In this document: positions 6,047-63,820 of the stretch, one piece after another | Position numbering within the stretch: the first letter of the stretch is position 1 | How the letters are laid out: the number at the start of each line of letters is the position of its first letter | DNA from: Ostreococcus lucimarinus | Lineage: Eukaryota | Direction: 5' to 3' (one strand) | Assembly: GCA_000092065.1 (NCBI GenBank) | Contig: CP000589.1 | DNA: 64,000 bases | Position numbers and translations under genes: made by a program | Notes under the pieces: model-generated | The model's database searches: none | What the model saw: only the letters and a program-made list of their open reading frames with translations | Told to the model about the DNA's origin: nothing

Positions 6047-7129
6047 TTAATCGAGCTTAAAACCGGGGATCGGGGCGTACAAGAAGGGCTCGCGGGCGAG
6101 CGGCATGCCGAGGAGCGCGAAGACGCCGCCGGCGGCGGCGCCGACGAGAATGATCGTGACGCCCCATTGCACGCCCTTGCGCACGAATTGAGCGACGACC
6201 TCGGGATCGTTTTCGTTGGCGGTCGCGTTCGTCGTCGTGAGCTGACGCCGGACGTCGATACCGAGAAGCTTGCGCTCGGCGGCTCTCGCCGTTTGCTCGC
6301 TCGCTCGACTCGTCAACGCCAGGGCGTTAAATTCGATACCCTTCTCGGCGCGCATCGCGCGCAACACTCTAGCCACGCTCGCTCGCGTTTCGACGACGGC
6401 CCATTTTGCGATTTCGCTCTTCGAGCCAAACTTCTTCGACGCGTACGTCGCCCCCTCCAACGCGACGTACGCGAATTCCGCGCCGTCGCCGCCCTCGAGC
6501 GCGAACGCCCGCGCCCCCTCCTCGAAACACCGCAACTCTCGCTCGACGTACCCTTTCGCCCGACCGAGCGCATCGACGTCGCTCTTCTTCAAAACTTTCA
6601 AGTCGTCGCTCCCGAAGCACGCCTCACGATCGAACAACGCCTTCGTCTTCGCGCGTTCGCACCCGTCGCCTTCGCCGTCGGCGATCGCCTTCGCCGCGTT
6701 CGACAATCCCACCGCACCTTCGACCCGCACCTCCCGCCGCGTCACCCCTGGCACGTCCCAAACATCTGCACCGCCATCCGCCACGATCGCGTCGTGCGCG
6801 AACGTCAAGAACCTTCCCTTTCTCGTCCCCGCGCCGTCGCTCGAGCGTCGCGCCGCGAACCAAATCTTCTCCTCGTCCACCGTCGCCCGCACGACGTCGT
6901 CGCGCGCCGAGACGCCCTCCGCGACGAGTCCGAGCGACGCGCGCGCGATGACGGCGAGCTCATCGAGCGTGATCGCGCGCTTCATCGCGTCGTCGCCCGT
7001 CGAGAGCCATCCATCGGTCGTGGCGTCGAAAAACGTCCCGGCGGTCTCGCGCGTCGCGCGCGCGACGTCGCAGCGCGCGACGAGCGCGACGAGCGCGATC
7101 AGCGTCGCGGCGACGCGCGCGCGAGGCAT
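6047..7129 (-). CDS. secreted/type-I membrane hypothetical protein
   Basis: The in-frame ATG gives MPRARVAATLIALVALVARCDVARA, a signal-peptide-like N-terminus. A C-terminal TM helix (WGVTIILVGAAAGGVFALLG) follows. The upstream 7130..8170 part of the ORF-track entry is antisense to the Vps18-like gene and judged spurious. Confidence 0.5.
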   Translation of the reverse strand: MPRARVAATLIALVALVARCDVARATRETAGTFFDATTDGWLSTGDDAMKRAITLDELAVIARASLGLVAEGVSARDDVVRATVDEEKIWFAARRSSDGAGTRKGRFLTFAHDAIVADGGADVWDVPGVTRREVRVEGAVGLSNAAKAIADGEGDGCERAKTKALFDREACFGSDDLKVLKKSDVDALGRAKGYVERELRCFEEGARAFALEGGDGAEFAYVALEGATYASKKFGSKSEIAKWAVVETRASVARVLRAMRAEKGIEFNALALTSRASEQTARAAERKLLGIDVRRQLTTTNATANENDPEVVAQFVRKGVQWGVTIILVGAAAGGVFALLGMPLAREPFLYAPIPGFKLD

Positions 7130-7217
7130 GGCGACGTTCGACCGACGCGCGCGCGCGGCGTCGCGGTTTGACGATAGATTCCGCGATTCACGACACTCAT
7201 CCGCGCGCGGTCGCGCG

Positions 7218-10200
7218 ATGTCGCGTCCGTTACCCGCGGGTGCGGCGCTGTTGGACGATCCAAACGCCAGGGCGTCGTTCGACGCGTTCGCGCGCCGCGA
7301 CGGGGTCGCGCGCGATGAAGAAACAGACGAAAACGCGCGCGATGTTGATTTGGATGCATCGGCGTCGCGGCCGAAATTCGCGGCGCTGAACGTCGGCGCG
7401 ACGTTGATGACGCCCGGAGTGGAGTCGGATGATGTGGACGATCGCTTAAAGGCGTTCGTGTTGGGTGGGGGTTCGAACGGGCGCGCAGTCGTGAGCGACG
7501 GCGGCGGCGGCGCGTTCGTCGGGCGGTTGGGCGACGGCGCGCGCGACGGCGTCGATGACGACGCGATCGCGCGGAAGATCTCGAGCGAAAACGCGGAAAC
7601 GTCGACGAGCTTGATCGTCGTGGACGATTGGTGCGGCGAACACTGCGTGATCGGGGTGATGGGTCGAGGCGACGGCGCCGGGGACGGGGCGCGATATTGG
7701 CGGCGAGGTTGGGCGGCGGCGCGGCCGCTCGCGGGTTTGCGTGGCGTGCACTGCACGTGCGCGACGTTCGTCAAGGGGAAAGACGGCGACAACGATGGGG
7801 CAAGGATCCTCTTGGGCTCGAGCGATGGGCGCGTGTTCGACGTGCGCGTGGACGCAGCGGACACGCGACGGTTTGAAAAATCGTGCGAAGTGGCGTTAGA
7901 GTTGCGAGACGGGAAAGCCATCACGGGAGTGTGCGCGACGAAAGATCGCGCGAGCGATGGTAGTGAAAGGTTCGGGGCACTGATTACGACGCCGTCGAAA
8001 TTGTACGCGTTCGTGGGGTCGTATTCATTAGAGTCCGTGCTCGCCATGGCACGCGCCCGACCGAGCGGTTTCGAGGCGGCGGTTGAGATGCCCGTGGAGA
8101 GCGATAGGAGTAAGCTGTGCGTGTGGCGAAAGCGGCGATCATCAACGCCTGATCGCATGGCGTGGCTCACCGGGGCTGGGGTTTATCGCGGGAAGCTGAA
8201 TTTCAAAGTCGACGACGCTTCAAGCGTGTTGGAGCAACACGGCGCGCTCCCCTTTCCAAAACTAGAAGACGACGAATCGGGGAACGACGCCCCGATTTCG
8301 CTTGCGATGACGGAGCATCACATTTTATTGCTATACTCGACGCGTTTGGTGGCCATGAATTCAATCACGGGAGATGTGGAAGGGACGATTAAACTACCCC
8401 TAGGTGGCGCGTCGACATTCGCTTTCACCGATCCTGCGACGTCTGTTCCGTACGCGGCGAACGCAGAGAATTTGCTACAAATCGTCGTTACAAACGAAGA
8501 TGCAAACATGTGGCGAGTGTACTGCGACCAAAATGATTACGACCAAGCGATTACGGCGTGCAAGTCTGATTTACAGCGGCAGTTCGTGTACACTGCTCGA
8601 GCAGAACGCGCGTTGAAATTGAAACGCTTCGACGAAGCCGCGACGGCGTTTGCCAACGCCGGCATCGCGCACGCAATCGAAACGATCGCAAAAACGTTCG
8701 TTGACTTGAACGCAAAAGACGCACTGTATGCGTACATGGAAGGGCGGTTACGCGGCTTACCGCAAGACGATGCGGCACGACGTTTGATCATCGCCATGTG
8801 GTTGCTTGAGGAGTACGTCAAGATTGCGAGCTTCTCTCGCAACGAGGCGAACGACTTCAAGGTTCGAGAGTTTTTGCGAGAAAATTTCGAGAGCCTGGAC
8901 GAACGGGAAGCGTTGCGAATTTTAAGCGAAGCTGGTCGTATCGATGACGAAATTTACTTTGCCGAACTGTGCGGTGATTACGACAGGGTATTGGATCATT
9001 TCATGCAAATCGGCGACGCGAGAAAAACTTTAGAAATCGCGGCTTCGCCTAAAGTACCGCGTTCAACGTTGAATCGAGTGTTGCCGACACTCATTAAGGC
9101 ACTGCCAAAAGACTCGATCGATTTCATGCTATCACGCCCGAAGACGGATGACGATGTGAAAATTATAGAGGCTTTGGCTCGCGACGATGCGTCCTACGCG
9201 GCGTCAGAGACGAGTGAATCGCTGGCTGCATACTTGACGAGATATTTAGAGTCCATCACGGCGAAACCGGACGGCGCAGCTCGCGGCGACGCCACGGTGC
9301 ACGATCTTCTGCTCGATGTGTACATCAAACAGCTAGAATCCTCACCCACCGTGGTGGCAACGTTGAACAAGTACATACTCGACGCCGTGGATGAAAGCAC
9401 TAATGCGCCGTACTACGACGTACATTATGCGATTCGTATGTGCGAAAAACATGGCGCACATCGAAGCGCTGTGTACGCATACTGTGTATCTCGGGATTTT
9501 GACATGGCCATGCACGTCGCGTTGACGACGCTTCAAGATGTGGAGTTGGCAAAAACCGTGACGAAAAAAGCCGCCGAGTCGAAATCAGATGATCCAAACG
9601 AAGACGAAATCACGCAGAAAAAACTGTGGATTGAGATTGCAAAGTGGTCGATTCGCAAGTCTGGTGCACTGGACAAGGCAATGGCATCGATGGACGAAGA
9701 CGAAAAGCGCACCGCGATTCGCAGCGCGCTGAGCTTTTTGAATGAAACCAACGGCGCGTTGCGTGTGGAGGACATTCTTCCTCTCCTTCCCGACTTCACC
9801 ATCATCGACGACGTGAAGGACTTGGTGCTGCAGTCTCTCACAGAGCATCGAACGGAGATCGAACAATTGAAAGAAGGCCTAGAAGAGATCACCGCCTTCA
9901 CGCAAGACGTCCAGGACGATATCGAGGAGATGGAACAGAAAACCATCGTCATCTCCAAGGATACGAAGTGCTTTGAATGCGGCAAGCCTGTGGTGCGTTT
10001 GCGTCTGATGGAGACGGCGGATGATCCAAACTTACTCGCCCCTTTCTATGTCTTTCCGTGCGAGATGGCGTATCACACTGAGTGCCTACTCCGACGCACG
10101 CTACCTCTCATGCTCATCGATCAACGCAAACGAGCGTTGGCGCTCATGCGTGCGCTCAAGGTGCCGCTCCCGCGACGGCTCAAGCCCGAGACAAAGTTTT

Positions 10201-10514
10201 GGGGCGCGCCGCCGAAATCTGCCACCGGTCTCACCACCGCCGAAGCCGTGAGTGAGCTCGAAGACATCTTATGCGCAGACTGCCCAGATTGTGGCGCGCA
10301 CGATTTACGTCTCATAAACCTCCCAATCTTGACACCAGAAGAGGAAGCCTTGGACGAGGAACTCGTGCGTTTGCTCCCGCCCGAGTGGTTCGAGCCCATG
10401 CACGCAGCCATCAACATGAACGACCCCGCGGAGACGTACCTGACCATGGAAGATTTCAAAAAAATAGATCTCGGCGAGGGATGGCCCGATCACGACTTCT
10501 TCCGCACGTTTTAG
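7218..10514 (+). CDS. VPS18: class C Vps (HOPS/CORVET) subunit, Vps18/Pep3-like, with C-terminal RING-H2 zinc finger
   Basis: ORF 6270..10514 trimmed to in-frame ATG at 7218. It carries beta-propeller/clathrin-heavy-chain-repeat-like central regions and a C-terminal C-x2-C...C-x-H-x2-C RING (KCFECGKPVV...FPCEMAYHTEC), as in Vps18/deep-orange. Confidence 0.7.
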   Translation: MSRPLPAGAALLDDPNARASFDAFARRDGVARDEETDENARDVDLDASASRPKFAALNVGATLMTPGVESDDVDDRLKAFVLGGGSNGRAVVSDGGGGAFVGRLGDGARDGVDDDAIARKISSENAETSTSLIVVDDWCGEHCVIGVMGRGDGAGDGARYWRRGWAAARPLAGLRGVHCTCATFVKGKDGDNDGARILLGSSDGRVFDVRVDAADTRRFEKSCEVALELRDGKAITGVCATKDRASDGSERFGALITTPSKLYAFVGSYSLESVLAMARARPSGFEAAVEMPVESDRSKLCVWRKRRSSTPDRMAWLTGAGVYRGKLNFKVDDASSVLEQHGALPFPKLEDDESGNDAPISLAMTEHHILLLYSTRLVAMNSITGDVEGTIKLPLGGASTFAFTDPATSVPYAANAENLLQIVVTNEDANMWRVYCDQNDYDQAITACKSDLQRQFVYTARAERALKLKRFDEAATAFANAGIAHAIETIAKTFVDLNAKDALYAYMEGRLRGLPQDDAARRLIIAMWLLEEYVKIASFSRNEANDFKVREFLRENFESLDEREALRILSEAGRIDDEIYFAELCGDYDRVLDHFMQIGDARKTLEIAASPKVPRSTLNRVLPTLIKALPKDSIDFMLSRPKTDDDVKIIEALARDDASYAASETSESLAAYLTRYLESITAKPDGAARGDATVHDLLLDVYIKQLESSPTVVATLNKYILDAVDESTNAPYYDVHYAIRMCEKHGAHRSAVYAYCVSRDFDMAMHVALTTLQDVELAKTVTKKAAESKSDDPNEDEITQKKLWIEIAKWSIRKSGALDKAMASMDEDEKRTAIRSALSFLNETNGALRVEDILPLLPDFTIIDDVKDLVLQSLTEHRTEIEQLKEGLEEITAFTQDVQDDIEEMEQKTIVISKDTKCFECGKPVVRLRLMETADDPNLLAPFYVFPCEMAYHTECLLRRTLPLMLIDQRKRALALMRALKVPLPRRLKPETKFWGAPPKSATGLTTAEAVSELEDILCADCPDCGAHDLRLINLPILTPEEEALDEELVRLLPPEWFEPMHAAINMNDPAETYLTMEDFKKIDLGEGWPDHDFFRTF

Positions 10515-10598
10515 AATTTTAGACATCCATGTTGAAATCGACGGAGCCGTCGCTTATCCACAGCCCGTGCGCGCGCAGAGTCTCCACAGCGCGACGTG

Positions 10599-11876
10599 AT
10601 GCATCGCGCCCTCGCTCGAACTTCTCTGCGGGTATCGCGTCACGACTTAACGACATCAATCTCCAGTCCCGCGTCGCACGCGCGTCGTCGCGCGATGCCC
10701 GCGCTGTCGTCCCGAGCCGACGCCGACTCGAAATCTGTCCCCACCGGGTCGCGAGAGCCACACTTTCGGTTCGGTTTGCTCGCCGACATACAGTACTGCG
10801 ACGGCGACGACCGCAAAAACATCACCGGAACGCAAATGCGGAGGTACAGGAACACGCTGAACGTCGCGGAACGGGCGGTGGAGTATTTTAACACGCACGA
10901 GTGTGACTTTTTGGTGCACAACGGAGACATCACCGACCACCAGTGCGCGTTTGATTTCGCGAGCGATGATTTTAAGCCCATCGAGCGCGGAAGAGAGGAT
11001 TTAGGGGCGGTGATGCGGATATTGAGCCGAGCGAAGTGCGCGGAGTGGTTGTTCACGGTTGGGAATCACGAGCTGTATAATTTTACGCGAGAGGAGTTGC
11101 GCCAAGGCGTGGCGAGTCCTGGGAATTCGTTGAATTTGAAATGCTCGAACGCGGATGGGGAGTTTTATTACTCCTTCAAAGCCGGACCGGGATGGCGAGT
11201 GATGGTGCTGGATCCGTACGCGGTGAGTATTTATCGCAAAGGTCGCCAGCAAGGGCTGTGCGAGGAAGCGGTGGAGCTGTTGCGCAAGCACAACCCAAAC
11301 GTCGACTTGTTCGTCAAGGAAAATCCAGACGTGATAGAGACCGAACGCATGAGCGGGACTTTTCCGTACTTCAAAGACATCGAGGGGCTGGCTGGGCGAT
11401 GGGTGCCGTTTAACGGAGGATTGGGGAAAGAGCAAATCGCCTGGGCTCGCGAGACGATTCGCGCCGCGAGCGCCGCAGACGAAAAGGTATTAATCTTCTC
11501 TCACTTGCTCATCCACCCGCACTCCACGGCGAAAAGATCGGGCAAGACTTTGATGTGGGACTACGACGAAATTTTAGAAATTATCGAGGCCGAGGAAACG
11601 CGAGGGTGCGTGAAGTGCGTAGTCTCCGGCCACCAACACGAAGGCACAAAGTGGCAGTGCGAGAAAACGGGCGTGCATTACATCGGCATGGAGAGCCCGA
11701 TGCTAGCCATGGACGTGTCCCCGGGACCATTTGCCATCGTTGAAGTCTTCGATGATGAAATTGTATTCAAAGGGTACGGGCGAAACGAGGACTCGCTCTT
11801 ATTCCCTTTCGATCCAGAAGAACCACCGACGGAGCCGTTGTTGTGCAGTCTTCGTGTGAATTCGCATGATCCTTAG
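10599..11876 (+). CDS. calcineurin-like metallophosphoesterase, ADP-ribose/CDP-alcohol diphosphatase (ADPRM)-like
   Basis: FRFGLLADIQY...GDDRKN...HNGDITDH...GNHE motifs match Mn-dependent ADPRibase. The first in-frame ATG is at 10599, and an alternative ATG at 10695 (MPALSS) is possible. The N-terminus looks like a targeting peptide. Confidence 0.7.
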   Translation: MHRALARTSLRVSRHDLTTSISSPASHARRRAMPALSSRADADSKSVPTGSREPHFRFGLLADIQYCDGDDRKNITGTQMRRYRNTLNVAERAVEYFNTHECDFLVHNGDITDHQCAFDFASDDFKPIERGREDLGAVMRILSRAKCAEWLFTVGNHELYNFTREELRQGVASPGNSLNLKCSNADGEFYYSFKAGPGWRVMVLDPYAVSIYRKGRQQGLCEEAVELLRKHNPNVDLFVKENPDVIETERMSGTFPYFKDIEGLAGRWVPFNGGLGKEQIAWARETIRAASAADEKVLIFSHLLIHPHSTAKRSGKTLMWDYDEILEIIEAEETRGCVKCVVSGHQHEGTKWQCEKTGVHYIGMESPMLAMDVSPGPFAIVEVFDDEIVFKGYGRNEDSLLFPFDPEEPPTEPLLCSLRVNSHDP

Positions 11877-11879
11877 AGC

Positions 11880-11970
11880 GCCCATCACACCACGTGTTGT
11901 ATTACTTTTACAATCCTTGTTAGTCATATTCTGTCGCTTTGCGATCGTCGCGCGCTTTCATCGGACGAAA
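11880..11970 (-). promoter_or_regulatory. candidate SECIS element region in the MsrA 3' UTR (unverified fold)
   Basis: Minus-strand 3' UTR read 5'->3': ...ccgATGAaagcgcgcgacgatcgcAAAgcgacagaatATGActaacaaggattgtAAAagtaatacaacacgtggtgTGATggg. It contains the SECIS core elements (AUGA, unpaired AAA, UGAU) at plausible spacing. I could not verify the helices by eye. Confidence 0.3.
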
Positions 11971-12064
11971 TCTCAGACGCAATGGCGTCTTTTGCGATTT
12001 CGTCGTCACGCGCGCGCGGACGTCGCTGCGCGAAAACAAATCTACTACTTTGACGCGACGAAAA

Positions 12065-12673
12065 TCACCACCCGAAACGCGACACGCGCGGTTTATTGTA
12101 GTACTTTTGATGGTACTCTTCGGCATCCCACCACGGTGTCGCTAAAGAGACCTCCGGCGGGTAGATATCGGTGAAGAACTTTCGCTGCACTTGCTTCTCG
12201 CGCGCTTCCTTGGACGCCACCGCTTTTTCGTACTGCTCGGGCGTCTGCGCCCAAATAGCGCTCTTATACTGCGCTTTGCTTTCGTACGTGGGTTGATGCT
12301 CGCTCCAAAACTGTTCCAACAGCTTATCGAAGCTCGTCGTCGCCGCGTCGTACGCCACGTAATACCCCTCCGTGTGCCCGGTTCCTCCGGCACACACCGC
12401 TGAATACGTCGGGAAATCGCTCTCGCCTCCTGTGTACCCGACCCTGACGTTCTTCACGCCCTTGAGCGCGCTGAACGAGGCGTCGGGCCCCCAAAATCAC
12501 CCAGAGGCGAAGACGGCGAGTTGGCAATTTTCCGGGACGACGAAACCATCGCCGCGGTCGGTGCGCCGCGCGTCCTTGCTCGCGGGCATCGCGGCGAGCG
12601 CGCGGACGTTTCTTTTGTTCGCGGACGCGCGCGAGGGAGCGGCGACGCGCGCGGTCGCGACGGCAGCGCGCAT
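12065..12673 (-). CDS. MSRA: peptide methionine sulfoxide reductase A, selenocysteine-containing (in-frame TGA at 12497-12499 replaces catalytic Cys of GCFWG)
   Basis: Two same-frame ORF-track entries (12497..12934 ending ...ENCQLAVFASG, and 12065..12457) are separated only by TGA. Read-through gives AVFASG-U-FWGPDASFSALKGVKNVRVGYTGG...TGHTEGYYVAYD...EHQPTYESKAQYKSAIW, a textbook MsrA with Sec at the catalytic position. Start trimmed to ATG (MRAAVATARVAAP, presequence-like) at 12673. Total length 202 aa. Confidence 0.8.
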
Positions 12674-12845: not shown

Positions 12846-13400
12846 TCAGCGCAGGATGACCAGAGACCAATCCGGGAACTTTGCGTTCCAGTATCGAACG
12901 CCCATCTGCGCGAGCGTTCGCGAGTTATCGTCAAACTTCTTCCCCGCGTACGCCAAGCGCACGAGCCCCGGCATGACTCCAGTTTTATCCGCGATGAGCT
13001 TTTTCACCTCGTTCACGCGCGTGGTGTCCGAGACGTCGATCCAGAACGGCCCTCCGTACTCGCAGTCGACGTGCAGCATGCTCGTGACGAGCAGACGCAG
13101 CGTCTTCGGCGGCTTTCTCATCGCCGCCACTTTCGCGTCGATGAAGCTCCCGAGCGGAATCCCTTTCGCCACGGCCTCGGCTTTATCCTTCAAGTATTCC
13201 TCGCGCGTCGGATCGTACATGGGCGTCCACTCCGAGCTCACCCCTCCCTCCCCGCGCGTCGCCGGCGCGTACCTCTCATCCTCCTCGTACCACGGGTACC
13301 CACCGTTCGGCGGGATCGTCGCCGTCGCCCCCGACCCCCCGGTCCCGGGCGCGTTGTTATACTTTGAAAACGCGAGGTCCGAGCTTCGATACGTCGGCAT
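12846..13400 (-). CDS. ubiquitin-like domain protein
   Basis: 184-aa ORF with verified ATG. The C-terminal ~75 aa (LRLLVTSMLHVDCEYGGPFWIDVSDTTRVNEVKKLIADKTGVMPGLVRLAYAGKKFDDNSRTLAQMGV) has a beta-grasp/ubiquitin-like pattern. Confidence 0.5.
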   Translation of the reverse strand: MPTYRSSDLAFSKYNNAPGTGGSGATATIPPNGGYPWYEEDERYAPATRGEGGVSSEWTPMYDPTREEYLKDKAEAVAKGIPLGSFIDAKVAAMRKPPKTLRLLVTSMLHVDCEYGGPFWIDVSDTTRVNEVKKLIADKTGVMPGLVRLAYAGKKFDDNSRTLAQMGVRYWNAKFPDWSLVILR

Positions 13401-58248: not shown

Positions 58249-59973
58249 TCATCGCTCCTTCTTACTCTCGTTTTCGGTCGCATCGTCCTTCTTACTCTCG
58301 TCTTCGGCGCCGGCGTCGGCGACGTAGCCGAATTCATTCGCGCGAGTTTCGTCGACGCGATAGACGCGTCTCTGATACAAGAATAAGAGGAAGATGACGT
58401 CGTCTCTGAAGACGGAAATGCGGTGAAGTGTGGGCATCTTGATGACGAAGGCGAATAAGTCGTCGATGATGGTGTTTAGGAACTTGTAGCCCATCTGTTT
58501 CCACGGCATAGCGGCGACGCTCTTGAGTTTGTAGTTGACGTACAGCTGAGGCGTCATGCTGATGAAACCAAAAGTATAGACAGCCCCGACGAGCGTACTC
58601 AGGACGAACGACCACCAACCTTTGTGTTCGTGCGTGCGCAGGCTGTACACGGCGTATACTCCCACGAGTGGATATAGCGCGTACGACAAATAGCGCATGG
58701 CGTCCGCGTCGTGTCGAGCGGTGTCGCTCTTGAGCGCGCTCGCCTTGTCGGCGACGCGAAGCCGCGGAAAGCGTCCGTCTCGATCAACAGAGACGTCCAT
58801 CGCGCGCGTCACCTTCCAAAACTCAATAACGACGCCCAAACCACTGGAAATAAGTATCATCCACGACGTTTCGTTGTCGCACAGGTACAAAAAGATGACG
58901 AGCTGACAAAAGGCGTTCAAAAGAACGCTTCGAGCGGACAATCCTTCGAGACTTTTGCGATTTCGCCAAAACTGCACGTCGTGTTTGAATGCAAAGAAAT
59001 CAAATATCGTGTGTAGCAAACTCACAACTGTCGTCACCGCGAGCAACGTCGGATTTCCTTCGAGAAACACGCGCTTCATGTTGTCCGCGTCGTGTTCTCC
59101 CGCCGCGCCGAACGCGCGTTGCGTCGACCACGTCTGCTCCATGGACTCTTCCATCTGCCAACGAAACTGAGAAATCGTCTCGAGGTTCAAGTTTATCTTC
59201 ATCTCGCGCGCGCTCGTTTCGTTCAGCTCGCGCAGATGGCTCTTGATGATCCAAAACTCGTTAAAATACACCGTGGGATAGTATCCCGACCGCCGCTCGT
59301 CCGAAAATCGCATTCGCCTCGCCAGGATGTCTGGAATCGTCGCCCCGCGATACGCCGCGAAATCATCCACCACGGTCAACGTCGCGTTGGGTTTATAATA
59401 CGCCTGATAATACTCCATCCCATCTTCCAACCCCTCCGTCCCGTCCTCGCGCGGCTCCGCCCGCGCCGAATCCTCGCCCAAGAGCTTCCTCCTTCGCGCG
59501 ACTCTTCGTCTTCGCCAAATCGTCGCGTCGAAAGACACTCGCAAAACGTCCCCATCGTCGTACCCCTCGTCCGCCGGATCCAGCGACGCGCCTAAACGCG
59601 AAACGATCGCGTGCAATTTCACGCTCACGTTTCTCGCCACCGCGTCCACGAGCGCGACCCCGAGATCCAACTCGACGTCGCGCGTCGCCGACGCCAGCGG
59701 CGCCGTCGTCCCCCACAGCGGCGTCTCCGCGTGAAAATTCACGCTCGACGCCTCGTAATCCTCCGCGAGCGCGTGCACGCGCACGTCAACGACTTCGTCC
59801 CGGCGCCACAGGTTCCGACAGACGTCCGCGTACGCCGTCGTCGTCGTCGTCGTCGTCGCGACGTCTTGGAACGCTTTCGGCGCGGAAACCGTCGTCAAGC
59901 TTCGCGTCAGGCGCACGGCGAAGCCGTACATCGCCGCGAGGCGCGCGATCTTGAGCGCGCTCTGCGCTCGCGA

Positions 59974-60007
<34 letters not shown>

Positions 60008-60018
60008 TCGGTCGACAT
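58249..60018 (-). CDS. CLPTM1: CLPTM1 (cleft lip and palate transmembrane protein 1) family membrane protein
   Basis: YYQAYYKPNATLTVVDD, YYPTVYFNEFW, MKRVFLEGNPTLLAVTTVVSLLHTIFDFFAFKHDVQFW, SARSVLLNAFCQLVIFLYLCDNETSWMIL are diagnostic CLPTM1 blocks. In-frame ATG at 60018. The C-terminus ends in an ESKK-repeat encoded by a 30-bp tandem repeat. Confidence 0.85.
58256..58315. repeat. 30-bp tandem repeat (x2) at the 3' end of the CLPTM1 CDS
   Basis: tccttcttactctcgttttcggtcgcatcg / tccttcttactctcgtcttcggcgccggcg. Encodes ESKKDDATENESKKER on the minus strand. Confidence 0.8.
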
Positions 60019-60039
60019 CGCGGCGCGGCGCGGCACACG

Positions 60040-60528: not shown

Positions 60529-60985
60529 CGACGCGCTCGTTTCGTTTGGTTCGCGCGCGAGGCAGGCTCGAGACGCGCAAACGGTACGACGACGCCGCGA
60601 CGCCATCGCGGCGTTAGACGTGGAAATAGCCGAGCGCGAATTGCGATTGGAAACTGCGACGGCGCGCGCGCGCCCGTTCGTGCACCGCTCGAGAGAACGC
60701 TTGTCGAGTTGGACGGAGGCCGCCGCGCGCCGTTTCGTGGCGACGACGCTCGAGCGCGAGCGCGTCGAGGATCTCGACGTTTTCGCGCGCGCCGCGCGTC
60801 AGGGGTGGGTCTTAGACGCGCACAAGTACCGTCGCACCGCGCCGCGTTGGCGCGTGTTAGATCCTCGATGCGGCGGCGTCGTCATTCGCGAGTATTAAGT
60901 CGCGCGTCTGGGTAGTTAGAGTAGCTCGTCCCGAACAACAGTCGTTGATCGTCCGACTTCAGACGCCGCCTCTCGCCTCGCCACG

Positions 60986-63820
60986 ATGCGCGCGAACCGC
61001 GACCGCGCGTTTCACGGCATACACTCCGACGCCACCGTCGCCGGAAGCGACGGCGCCGCGCCGCGTCGTCGCGACGAGCGCGAGCTCACCGAGCTCGACG
61101 TCTTCGGGACGCTCAAGGAAAAGCACCACAAAAACACCGTGAAAACGATGCGCGCGATGTACGCGGACGTCCGCGAGCGACGGCGAAGGGCGATGGAAGA
61201 TTTAACGCCGCTCCAACGCCGGGCGCGGGCGAGCGGAGGCGTGAATCCGTTCGATTGGTCGGATGGACACGTGGGACACTTTTACGAGTTCATGGTGGCG
61301 GAGAACGCGGCGAGCGAACGAGGAGCGAAGTCGCGCGCCATGGTGTTCGAGAGACAGGATGAGTCGGGACAAAACGTGGTGGAGGAATTATTCGATAGTT
61401 TTAGGGCGGACTACGCGGATCGGTGGCGGGCGGAGGTGGTGTGCGGGATCGACGCGAGCGCGGGGGCGTGCGAGCGGTATAGGGACGCCGCGGCGGAGGC
61501 GTGCGAAGCGTTGCTGGGAGACGACGACGCACGAGAGATGGGGGCGTGCGAGACGTATTTGCACACGTATGGGATCGTGCACGAGCATTGGCACGTGGAA
61601 GATTACGTGCAGGCCAGGAATACGTTGGGATACTCAAAGCCAAAGATGGAGGCGCCAAAGCGATATCCGGCGAATTTGTGGGGAGACTCGGTCTTGGCGC
61701 GCTCGAGAAACGGGGAATGTTCGGCCTGTAGTACTCAAGTGATCACTCTTCAAGGATATGTCGACGTGGATGTGGGGACGACCTATTCTTTAGGCGCCGA
61801 GCGAGAGGACAAGTGGGTGTTCGACGCCGAGCGATGGGCGCACGACGTACCAATGACAAAGTTCAAAATTGCGAAGACGTGTTGCACGAACGCGCAATTC
61901 GCGTGCTTTGTCGAAACAGGAGGTTATGCCGACAGAAGTCTTTGGAGTCACGAAGGGTGGCGATGGGTGGAAAAACGACGCGCCGCGGGTGAATTGTTGG
62001 CGCCTCTCGGTTGGAAAGTGTCGCCGTGCGTGAAATTCTTAAGCAACGGCGAAGAAGCACCCGCGTGTGAGAGTTGGCGATGTGCGTACTTTGATGAAGC
62101 GCCACGCGCACTACATCCGCAGCACCCTGTGTGCCACGTGTCGTGGTACGAAGCCGAGGCGTATTGTAACTGGATTGGCGCACGTTTACCGACTGAGGCG
62201 GAATGGGAAGCAGCCGCGAGAACGACGACGAGTTGGTCGACGGACAAACAAACCACAAAGCGTCGCACGTATCCGTGGGGTGAAGAATCTCCTTCAGAAG
62301 ACAAAGCAAATCTTGGTGGACACTTTGGAGGTACTATTGATGTCAGTGCTTTGGGTGCGGGCGATAGCGCGCACGGTTGCCGACAGATGTTGGGCAACGT
62401 TTGGGAATGGACGGCGTCGGCTTTCCTGCCTTTTCCCGGTTTTCAAATGGACTACCCGTATCGCGAAAACAGCTGTCCGTGGTTTGGGTATAGAAAAGTC
62501 GTCAAAGGCGGGTGTTGGGCGACGAGCGCGCCCATCGCGCGTGCGGCATATAGACACTCGTTTTGGCCGCACATGCACAACACGTTCAGTGGATTTCGCG
62601 CCGCTATCGGTGGCTCGCAAAAGCGCGCGCTTTGCATTCTTCCGCAAAAAATACAGAGCGGCGCAAAATGTGGCAACGTGGTCACGATGGAAAGAATTTC
62701 TTCGCATCTCGAGAAGAATCACATCATGAGCATCACGCGTTCGATTTTTGATCTGCCGCAGTCAAAGGAGGATTTGGCGAACATAATACACGCGATGAAC
62801 GTCGATTTGATCATCGTCTTGCACGCTTTCAAGTGCGGTGCCGTGATCGATACCGTACAGGCATATAAAGACATGCTCCCGCCTATCGTTCTAGTGCTCG
62901 GCGGCACCGACGTCAACGTGGATTCTCGAAAGTCTGCGCTCGCTGAGGAACAATTTCGCCGACGCGTTGACGTCGCGACAAAAGTTGTCTCGTTTTCCTT
63001 GTCCATGATAGAAGCCGCACCCAAAGGTGCGTTGAAATTTATCGAGTCGGACTCGACATCTAAAACCAAACTGATACCGCAAGGAGTCATGCTCCCGAGC
63101 ACGTTGAAGGCTTCAAAGCGCAAAAGGCTTGCAGATGAAACTGTGGAAACACCCGGCGAGCTTCAAGGCACCTCGCGGCCTGCGGACCTATCGATACCGA
63201 TCATGTTCCTACCTGCGGGATTACGCCCAGTCAAGGACGTGTGCTTCATAAACGACGCATTGACTGCGTATAACTCAAATGGAATCAAAGCACATCTGAC
63301 TGTGTGCGGCCCTTTCCTCGATTCGGCGTACGCGAAACGCGTGCGATGTCAGTTTGACGGTCGTTCCGATTGTACCTTGCTAGCAGGTGTCGATCGCGCG
63401 ACGCTTGTAAGGTTCATCGGCGAGGCGAAAGTTTTGTTGAACACCTCGGTATCGGAAGGTCAAAGCGGAACCATCGCTGAAGCGATGATGGTGGGGACTT
63501 TAGTCTTCGCGCGAGATATTCCAGGCAATCGTCAGCTCTTTGAGTTGTGCGAAGCGAGAGCGCTCGCAGCACTCGGTCCTGCGACGATAAAGGAGATGAA
63601 GGGCGATGGATGGGAGGTTCACCCGGTGGGAGTACTATTCTCGACTCCAGAGGGTTGCATGCGCGCTTTCGAAGCATTAGGTCTCGAAAGAGAGTCGACC
63701 GAAGACGTGGATGTATCGTTGATTAGACTCCGCGCGCGCGAAGGCGTCGCCGAACTGTCATTGAACGAAGCGAAGCGTTGGACGGAAATTTTAGACGAAA
63801 TCACCGCGCACGGTTCATGA
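60986..63820 (+). CDS. fusion protein: DinB-like/FGE-sulfatase (EgtB/OvoA/SUMF-like) domain plus C-terminal GT4-like glycosyltransferase domain
   Basis: ATG verified. The middle region (HPVCHVSWYEAEAYCNWIGARLPTEAEWEAAAR...YPWGEE...MLGNVWEWTASAF...KVVKGGCWATSAPIARAAYRHSFWPHMHNTFSGFR) is a complete FGE-sulfatase/C-type-lectin-like fold. The upstream HEHWHVEDY His cluster suggests a DinB-like metal site. The C-terminal 350 aa end in SEGQSGTIAEAMMVGTLVFARDIPGNRQL, a GT-B donor-binding motif. Confidence 0.65.
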   Translation: MRANRDRAFHGIHSDATVAGSDGAAPRRRDERELTELDVFGTLKEKHHKNTVKTMRAMYADVRERRRRAMEDLTPLQRRARASGGVNPFDWSDGHVGHFYEFMVAENAASERGAKSRAMVFERQDESGQNVVEELFDSFRADYADRWRAEVVCGIDASAGACERYRDAAAEACEALLGDDDAREMGACETYLHTYGIVHEHWHVEDYVQARNTLGYSKPKMEAPKRYPANLWGDSVLARSRNGECSACSTQVITLQGYVDVDVGTTYSLGAEREDKWVFDAERWAHDVPMTKFKIAKTCCTNAQFACFVETGGYADRSLWSHEGWRWVEKRRAAGELLAPLGWKVSPCVKFLSNGEEAPACESWRCAYFDEAPRALHPQHPVCHVSWYEAEAYCNWIGARLPTEAEWEAAARTTTSWSTDKQTTKRRTYPWGEESPSEDKANLGGHFGGTIDVSALGAGDSAHGCRQMLGNVWEWTASAFLPFPGFQMDYPYRENSCPWFGYRKVVKGGCWATSAPIARAAYRHSFWPHMHNTFSGFRAAIGGSQKRALCILPQKIQSGAKCGNVVTMERISSHLEKNHIMSITRSIFDLPQSKEDLANIIHAMNVDLIIVLHAFKCGAVIDTVQAYKDMLPPIVLVLGGTDVNVDSRKSALAEEQFRRRVDVATKVVSFSLSMIEAAPKGALKFIESDSTSKTKLIPQGVMLPSTLKASKRKRLADETVETPGELQGTSRPADLSIPIMFLPAGLRPVKDVCFINDALTAYNSNGIKAHLTVCGPFLDSAYAKRVRCQFDGRSDCTLLAGVDRATLVRFIGEAKVLLNTSVSEGQSGTIAEAMMVGTLVFARDIPGNRQLFELCEARALAALGPATIKEMKGDGWEVHPVGVLFSTPEGCMRAFEALGLERESTEDVDVSLIRLRAREGVAELSLNEAKRWTEILDEITAHGS

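Follow-up and report, generated by a model that had tools for sequence, protein, structure and literature searches.

A form-2 SECIS element very probably lies in the convergent spacer downstream of the selenoprotein MsrA gene of Ostreococcus lucimarinus

Results and Discussion

The MsrA locus and its selenocysteine codon

We analyzed a stretch of 64,000 nucleotides of the Ostreococcus lucimarinus genome, referred to as the window, and in particular the 188-nt spacer (11877-12064) between the stop codons of two convergent genes; the coordinates of all features are collected in Table 1. The minus-strand gene encodes a methionine-S-sulfoxide reductase (MsrA), identified by its PMSR domain (PF01625, residues 53-195, E=1.3e-38, 133 bits), and its translation begins with a presequence-like stretch. 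The plus-strand gene encodes a protein with a Metallophos domain (Pfam, E=3.1e-9) that matches the zebrafish dimetal phosphatase 2NXF (PDB 2nxf_A, E=4e-33). A ubiquitin-like gene at 12849-13400 on the minus strand neighbors MsrA, and its product has the same sequence as XP_001419754.1 from Ostreococcus lucimarinus CCE9901. The open reading frame at 6270-10514 on the plus strand has 1414 codons for amino acids, of which, by comparison with the orthologous loci and PF05131, only the C-terminal ~1100 residues resemble a real Vps18/Pep3 protein; its N-terminal part is low-complexity read-through, as is usual in GC-rich sequence.

The MsrA frame reads ...LAVFASG-U-FWGPDASF... in translation, where U (residue 59) is encoded by the one in-frame TGA and takes the place of the catalytic cysteine in GCFWG, i.e. 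the arrangement of a selenoprotein MsrA. Our translation is the same as the O. lucimarinus MsrA published in additional data file 2 of PMC2375036, barring evident text-extraction errors. The NCBI entry of the gene, XP_001419753.1 (12068-12499, minus strand), is a 'predicted protein, partial' of 143 residues, and hence is cut at the Sec codon, which is a point for the annotation of this gene. Gene callers run on marine metagenomes also begin MsrA after the TGA, with products of 97-136 amino acids.

Table 1. Coordinates of the features discussed, given in the direction of the strand on which they are read
Feature	Position in the window	Strand	Details
MsrA coding sequence	12673..12065	minus	202 residues and stop, single exon; from translation and Pfam PMSR
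In-frame TGA (Sec codon) of MsrA	12499-12497	minus	catalytic Cys position of GCFWG
MsrA stop codon TGA	12067-12065	minus	
Metallophosphoesterase gene, convergent	10596..11876	plus	open reading frame; stop TAG 11874-11876
Whole SECIS stem-loop with extended lower stem	12032-11935	minus	minimum free energy fold
SECIS proper	12018-11948	minus	covariance-model matches
SECIS core region	12017-11950	minus	
Extended lower stem	12032-12019 with 11949-11935	minus	fold
Helix I, 5' strand GCGCGC	12017-12012	minus	6 bp, pairs with 11955-11950
Helix I, 3' strand GCGCGC	11955-11950	minus	fold
5' core G-UGA	12009-12006	minus	unpaired G12009, then U12008, G12007, A12006
Helix II, 5' strand GACGAAAUC	12004-11996	minus	9 bp with 11972-11964
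Helix II, 3' strand GAUUUCGUC	11972-11964	minus	folds and covariation
Unpaired 5' internal loop GCAAA	11995-11991	minus	conserved adenosines A11993-A11991
Form-2 mini-stem	11990-11975	minus	6 bp AGACGC/GCGUCU, CAUU tetraloop
Unpaired GA	11974-11973	minus	fold
3' core C-GA-U	11963-11960	minus	GA = G11962, A11961
UGUAA, probable MsrA poly(A) signal	11912-11908	minus	37 nt past helix I; probable assignment to the MsrA mRNA
UGUAU, poly(A)-signal variant	11898-11902	plus	
SelW-like selenoprotein gene, coding sequence	55981-55712	minus	MNPLVHITY-U-GG-U-GYLRF...; Rdx/SelW domain, E=1.8e-13
SelW-like Sec codons (TGA)	55954-55952, 55945-55943	minus	UGGU motif
SelW-like SECIS	55656-55584	minus	third-ranked match of the orthologue model R1, 15.9 bits

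The TGA is conserved among the relatives of the gene, and so is the frame in front of it. The nearest database relatives of the MsrA protein are shortened gene calls that start past the TGA on marine metagenome contigs. We fetched 11 such loci (L001-L011); counted with the window, they fall into seven distinct lineages. The order of genes is the same throughout, namely ubiquitin-like, MsrA, convergent Metallophos and Vps18, and their identity to MsrA is 71-97% over the aligned C-terminal two-thirds of the protein. The TGA is kept in L001-L010, all of which read G*FWG, and the conserved upstream frame follows the pattern GDGF.VP..C.LAVFA.G. In L011 (1-722) the MsrA frame is shifted upstream of residue ~70 and G*FWG is unreadable, while the rest is near-identical to L002; the frameshift is probably an assembly indel.

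One could take the TGA for a genuine stop or a pseudogene lesion that needs no recoding element, and both the partial 143-residue database entry and the prokaryote-style metagenome callers, which start past it, would fit such a reading. We give it next to no credence. The protein is conserved upstream of the TGA in the ten readable loci, all readable lineages retain the codon, and it sits at the essential catalytic cysteine of the PMSR domain. Furthermore, Chlamydomonas has an established selenocysteine-containing MsrA, and others are listed for Thalassiosira and the two Ostreococcus species (PMC2375036).

A hairpin with the SECIS layout in the MsrA 3' UTR

The spacer folds into a single strong hairpin on the MsrA strand. 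It is both the minimum free energy and the centroid structure of a 99-nt segment (-49.8 kcal/mol, z=-3.63 against shuffles), and folding the whole spacer gives the same hairpin by both measures. At its base, 12019-12026 pairs with 11941-11949 and 12030-12032 with 11935-11937, extending the 6-bp helix I downwards to 12032/11935. A small internal loop separates helix I from the core, where GUGA faces CGAU across the loop between helix I and helix II, and C12005 follows the 5' core. The 9 bp of helix II fall in the range of a SECIS (about 9-12 bp), and the first conserved adenosine lies 12 nt past the core UGA, where about 10-13 nt would be typical; in the orthologues parsed by hand this distance is 10-13 nt. 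The unpaired adenosines belong to the internal loop GCAAA with a mini-stem above it, i.e. form 2, and not to an apical loop as in form 1. The element starts 32 nt past the MsrA stop, and its 5' core is 55 nt past the stop and ~490 nt past the Sec codon, which places it in the predicted 3' UTR of a gene with an in-frame UGA at a Cys/Sec position. Tandem sheared G.A pairs are the geometry of SECIS elements and kink-turns. By analogy, G11962 and A11961 would form such pairs with A12006 and G12007.

We also considered every UGA/GA pair in the MsrA 3' UTR, forcing the first pair of helix II to form and folding what the two motifs enclose. Among all combinations, only GUGA(12009)/GA(11962) encloses a stable helix II and apical part bounded by both cores, with -20.9 kcal/mol and a clean SECIS layout. 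Patterns of motifs are of no use here. The string ATGA-N9-14-AAA-N15-45-TGAT occurs three times in the window compared with 1.55 +/- 1.34 times in dinucleotide shuffles, at least three being reached in 19 of 100 shuffles, and the pattern GTGA..AAA..GAT, too, appears in the window only at chance frequency; thus the presence of such motifs alone carries no weight.

Conservation and covariation of the hairpin

The equivalent hairpin was obtained by folding each orthologous spacer separately. Across the seven aligned hairpins, with a mean identity of 59%, the invariant columns are UGAC, AA, GA and one position of helix I; the base before UGA is G in six lineages and A in one (L001). Both helices and the mini-stem are recovered by RNAalifold on a MAFFT alignment, and compensatory changes are seen in 16 of 18 pairs. 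The helix I pairs at columns 17-21/84-88 of alignment A1 are among those with compensatory changes.

A model-based alignment (A4) gives a similar picture. In it 90.9% of the cells are paired, compared with 34-49% after shifting the partners by 1-3 columns, and both sides have changed in 11 of 15 pairs (7 of 10 in helix II and 4 of 5 in the modelled mini-stem); none of 500 shuffles reached the observed values. This alignment was fitted to the model and hence leans towards the structure, while the independent MAFFT/RNAalifold result agrees with it. L010 was omitted from the covariation count, and MAFFT misplaced its 3' core. Its hairpin was not recovered by the covariance model described below at E<=0.001, and parsing it by hand gives GUGAC, a helix of 1+9 bp that contains a single bulged base, then GAAAA, a mini-stem and UUGAU. 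The frame-shifted L011 retains an intact SECIS, which the same model scores at 78 bits.

The hairpin is the strongest match in the window to a model that had not seen it. We built a covariance model (R1) on four of the metagenomic orthologues alone, excluding the window and the 97%-identical L008, and scanned both strands of the 64 kb with filters off. The top match is 11948-12018 on the minus strand, with 47.1 bits and E=3.1e-9, and the runner-up has 19.7 bits.

We rejected this runner-up (60750-60793, minus, rough E 0.0095) as a candidate, being a local match that has no 5' core and no upstream minus-strand gene. The sequence folds into a GC-rich hairpin that has a mini-stem and AAAA in an internal loop but lacks a properly spaced 5' UGA core. 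A CLPTM1 gene (58249-60036, minus) starts on one side of it and an FGE-sulfatase/glycosyltransferase gene (60986-63820, plus) on the other. The hairpin is probably there by chance.

The Rfam SECIS model fits this lineage poorly

An Rfam scan of the whole window at the gathering thresholds matched no family. Scanning 551 nt with E<=10 gave no SECIS either, only chance-level matches to snoZ159, CRISPR-DR28 and fiv_FSE. The family RF00031 (SECIS_1) surfaced only on a 111-nt stretch, where the filters are laxer: 11949-12018 on the minus strand is matched to model positions 1-64 with 26.6 bits and E=0.0011, which is lower than the gathering threshold of 35 bits.

The register of this match is the same as ours, covering helix I, the xUGA core, a 10-position helix II, AAA, the apical stem and the 3' GAU; GUGA is aligned to AUGA, AAA to AAA and CGAU to UGAU. 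The differences are that the MsrA element has G rather than A before the UGA, C rather than U before the 3' GA, and a mini-stem longer than the apical stem of the model. We take RF00031 to be built mainly from animal SECIS elements. The SECIS of the SelW-like gene in the window was not detected at all by Rfam, and hence we read the 26.6 bits as a poor fit of the model to this lineage and not as evidence against the element. For annotation this means that both SECIS elements of the window are missed by SECIS_1 at its gathering threshold.

The strand on which the hairpin acts

The hairpin is nearly palindromic and about as stable on the plus strand (-49.5 kcal/mol), and therefore the strand cannot be chosen by thermodynamics alone. 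We considered a plus-strand SECIS serving the metallophosphoesterase gene and rejected it; that strand has no UGA/AA/GA in SECIS order and no Rfam SECIS match.

Given the nearly equal energies on the two strands and the location between convergent genes of a very compact genome, the hairpin might instead be a strand-neutral palindrome, e.g. a terminator, a barrier or a limiter of read-through, in which the SECIS-like motifs are incidental. We consider this very improbable. The positions that never vary in the seven lineages are the SECIS signature UGA, AA and GA on the MsrA strand at canonical spacing, whereas the stems vary freely with compensation. A pure palindrome would have no reason to keep an asymmetric unpaired AAA and a UGA/GA internal loop, and SECIS_1 matches the minus strand only. 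In addition, the conserved TGA codon of MsrA calls for a SECIS. The hairpin may nevertheless have a second role besides that of a SECIS.

Probable poly(A) signals and predicted 3' ends of the two transcripts

In O. lucimarinus the dominant poly(A) signal is UGUAA, with UGUAU as a variant (PMC6413133). The palindrome TTGTA-N7-TACAA at 11897-11913 contains both, UGUAA on the minus strand and UGUAU on the plus strand. A UGUA[A/U/C] follows the SECIS in each of the seven lineages, and the palindrome TTGTA-N7-TACAA itself recurs in L009. This palindrome may be a bidirectional poly(A) signal shared by the two genes. From the positions of UGUAA and UGUAU, we infer that the MsrA and the neighboring mRNAs overlap by a few tens of nucleotides, at ~11890-11925. 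If UGUAA at 11912-11908 is the poly(A) signal, then the MsrA mRNA probably ends near or before 11887. The signal positions also suggest that the neighbor's mRNA ends before the SECIS, with no overlap between the SECIS and the neighbor's 3' UTR.

We speculate further that the spacer could be a shared 3' module, in which UGUAA would serve MsrA and UGUAU the metallophosphoesterase gene. The two mRNAs would share a few tens of nucleotides and each would stop shortly before the functional elements of the other, and the nearly palindromic SECIS stem might in addition hold back read-through of the convergent gene. We regard this as rather unlikely, and were it true the identity of the SECIS would be unchanged.

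These signals also bear on the sequence-only reading of this region, which had placed the SECIS in the same spacer with another anatomy: a 5' core AUGA at 11961-11958 or 11927-11924, the functional adenosines in an AAAA at ~11909-11906 and a 3' core UGAU at 11887-11884, beside or overlapping the end of the neighboring gene. All three motifs are indeed present on the minus strand with SECIS-like spacing, and the 5-bp hairpin UUGUA-N7-UACAA shows the run of A's in its loop. As the core of the SECIS, this anatomy is most improbable in our judgement. The pair AUGA(11927)/UGAU(11887) encloses a segment of only -2.0 kcal/mol without helix II. No downstream GA allows AUGA(11961) to form the first pair of helix II; this AUGA lies on the 3' side of our hairpin, where its first A doubles as that of the 3' GA. 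The motif string is at chance frequency, as given above. The A-run belongs to UGUAA, the probable poly(A) signal, while the conserved adenosines are at 11993-11991. The TGAT at 11887-11884 is missing in the closest relative L008 and in the other orthologues, and with the MsrA mRNA end predicted above it would sit at or past the poly(A) site. Both covariance models put the SECIS at 11948-12018, ~50 to 80 bases upstream of these motifs, with GUGA (12009-12006) as the 5' core and CGAU (11963-11960) as the 3' core. Nor does the element reach the neighboring coding region, since the extended stem stops at 11935, 59 nt away from the neighbor's stop codon, and the core helix I already ends at 11950.

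In other respects the sequence-only reading was right. The 188-nt spacer convergent with a metallophosphoesterase gene is bounded by the two stop codons as it had described, and the in-frame Sec TGA in MsrA and a form-2 SECIS inside the spacer are upheld by the TGA itself, the folds, the R1 match, the covariation and the SECIS_1 register. It had proposed three checks. SECIS-constrained folding favored GUGA/GA and went against the noted cores; the covariance-model search succeeded with R1 and recovered the same register with SECIS_1, the latter staying below its threshold; and comparison with another SECIS of the same genome, that of the SelW-like gene, revealed the same design. Reading the raw sequence thus gave the existence of the SECIS, its type and the interval correctly, and the nucleotides wrongly.

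Predicted function in selenocysteine insertion

We are highly confident that the spacer holds the eukaryotic form-2 SECIS of the O. lucimarinus MsrA mRNA. In characterized SECIS elements the UGA/GA core is a kink-turn bound by SBP2, which recruits eEFSec with Sec-tRNA, and the upstream UGA is recoded as selenocysteine. In MsrA the 3' UTR is predicted to fold into the GC-rich helix I, the small loop, the kink-turn of UGA (12008-12006) and GA (11962-11961), helix II, the A-loop and the mini-stem. By analogy with the characterized elements, SBP2 would bind this core and would bring eEFSec and Sec-tRNA[Ser]Sec to ribosomes at the UGA at 12499-12497. The chain would then not end there but would carry selenocysteine at the catalytic position of MsrA.

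Comparison with known selenoprotein genes

The window contains a second selenoprotein gene, SelW-like, whose product with two Sec residues appears as 'O. lucimarinus Wb' in additional data file 2 of PMC2375036. Its SECIS follows the design of the MsrA element. This SECIS begins about 55-65 nt past the stop codon, and has GUGAC (55647-55643), a helix II of 10 bp interrupted by one bulge, AAAA left unpaired 11 nt past the UGA, a mini-stem of 6-7 bp with a small loop, and UGAU at 55599-55596. The two elements differ in that their stem sequences are unrelated and that the SelW-like one has two Sec codons (UGGU) to serve, the MsrA one a single codon.

Lobanov et al. (2007, Genome Biol 8:R198; PMC2375036) identified 29 selenoproteins in O. 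lucimarinus by SECISearch, MsrA included, and reported labelling with 75Se for the whole proteome of O. tauri. According to the same paper, the SECIS elements of O. lucimarinus have an unpaired G before the core in all but one case, and none of them is type I. Since Ostreococcus elements use GUGA and not AUGA, pattern searches based on AUGA fail in this lineage. The portions of the text and supplements of PMC2375036 available to us print neither coordinates nor a drawing of the MsrA SECIS; the hairpin described here is the sole SECIS-like one in the 3' UTR, and hence is presumably the element predicted by those authors. With MsrA, its Sec codon and the SECIS type all published in 2007, the element was already known. 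The MsrA SECIS is real, conventional and previously published, and implies no new biology.

Beyond the genus, the selenoprotein MsrA of Chlamydomonas reinhardtii with its SECIS (ref. 12 in PMC2375036) is alike in having Sec in place of the catalytic cysteine in a green alga, and differs in coming from another algal class. The closest known system is the Ostreococcus-type SECIS itself, defined by an unpaired G and a long mini-stem (PMC2375036). The MsrA element has both, G12009 and a mini-stem of 6 bp, and it agrees with that type in organism, gene, unpaired G, form 2, long mini-stem and location in the 3' UTR, with nothing substantive setting the two apart.
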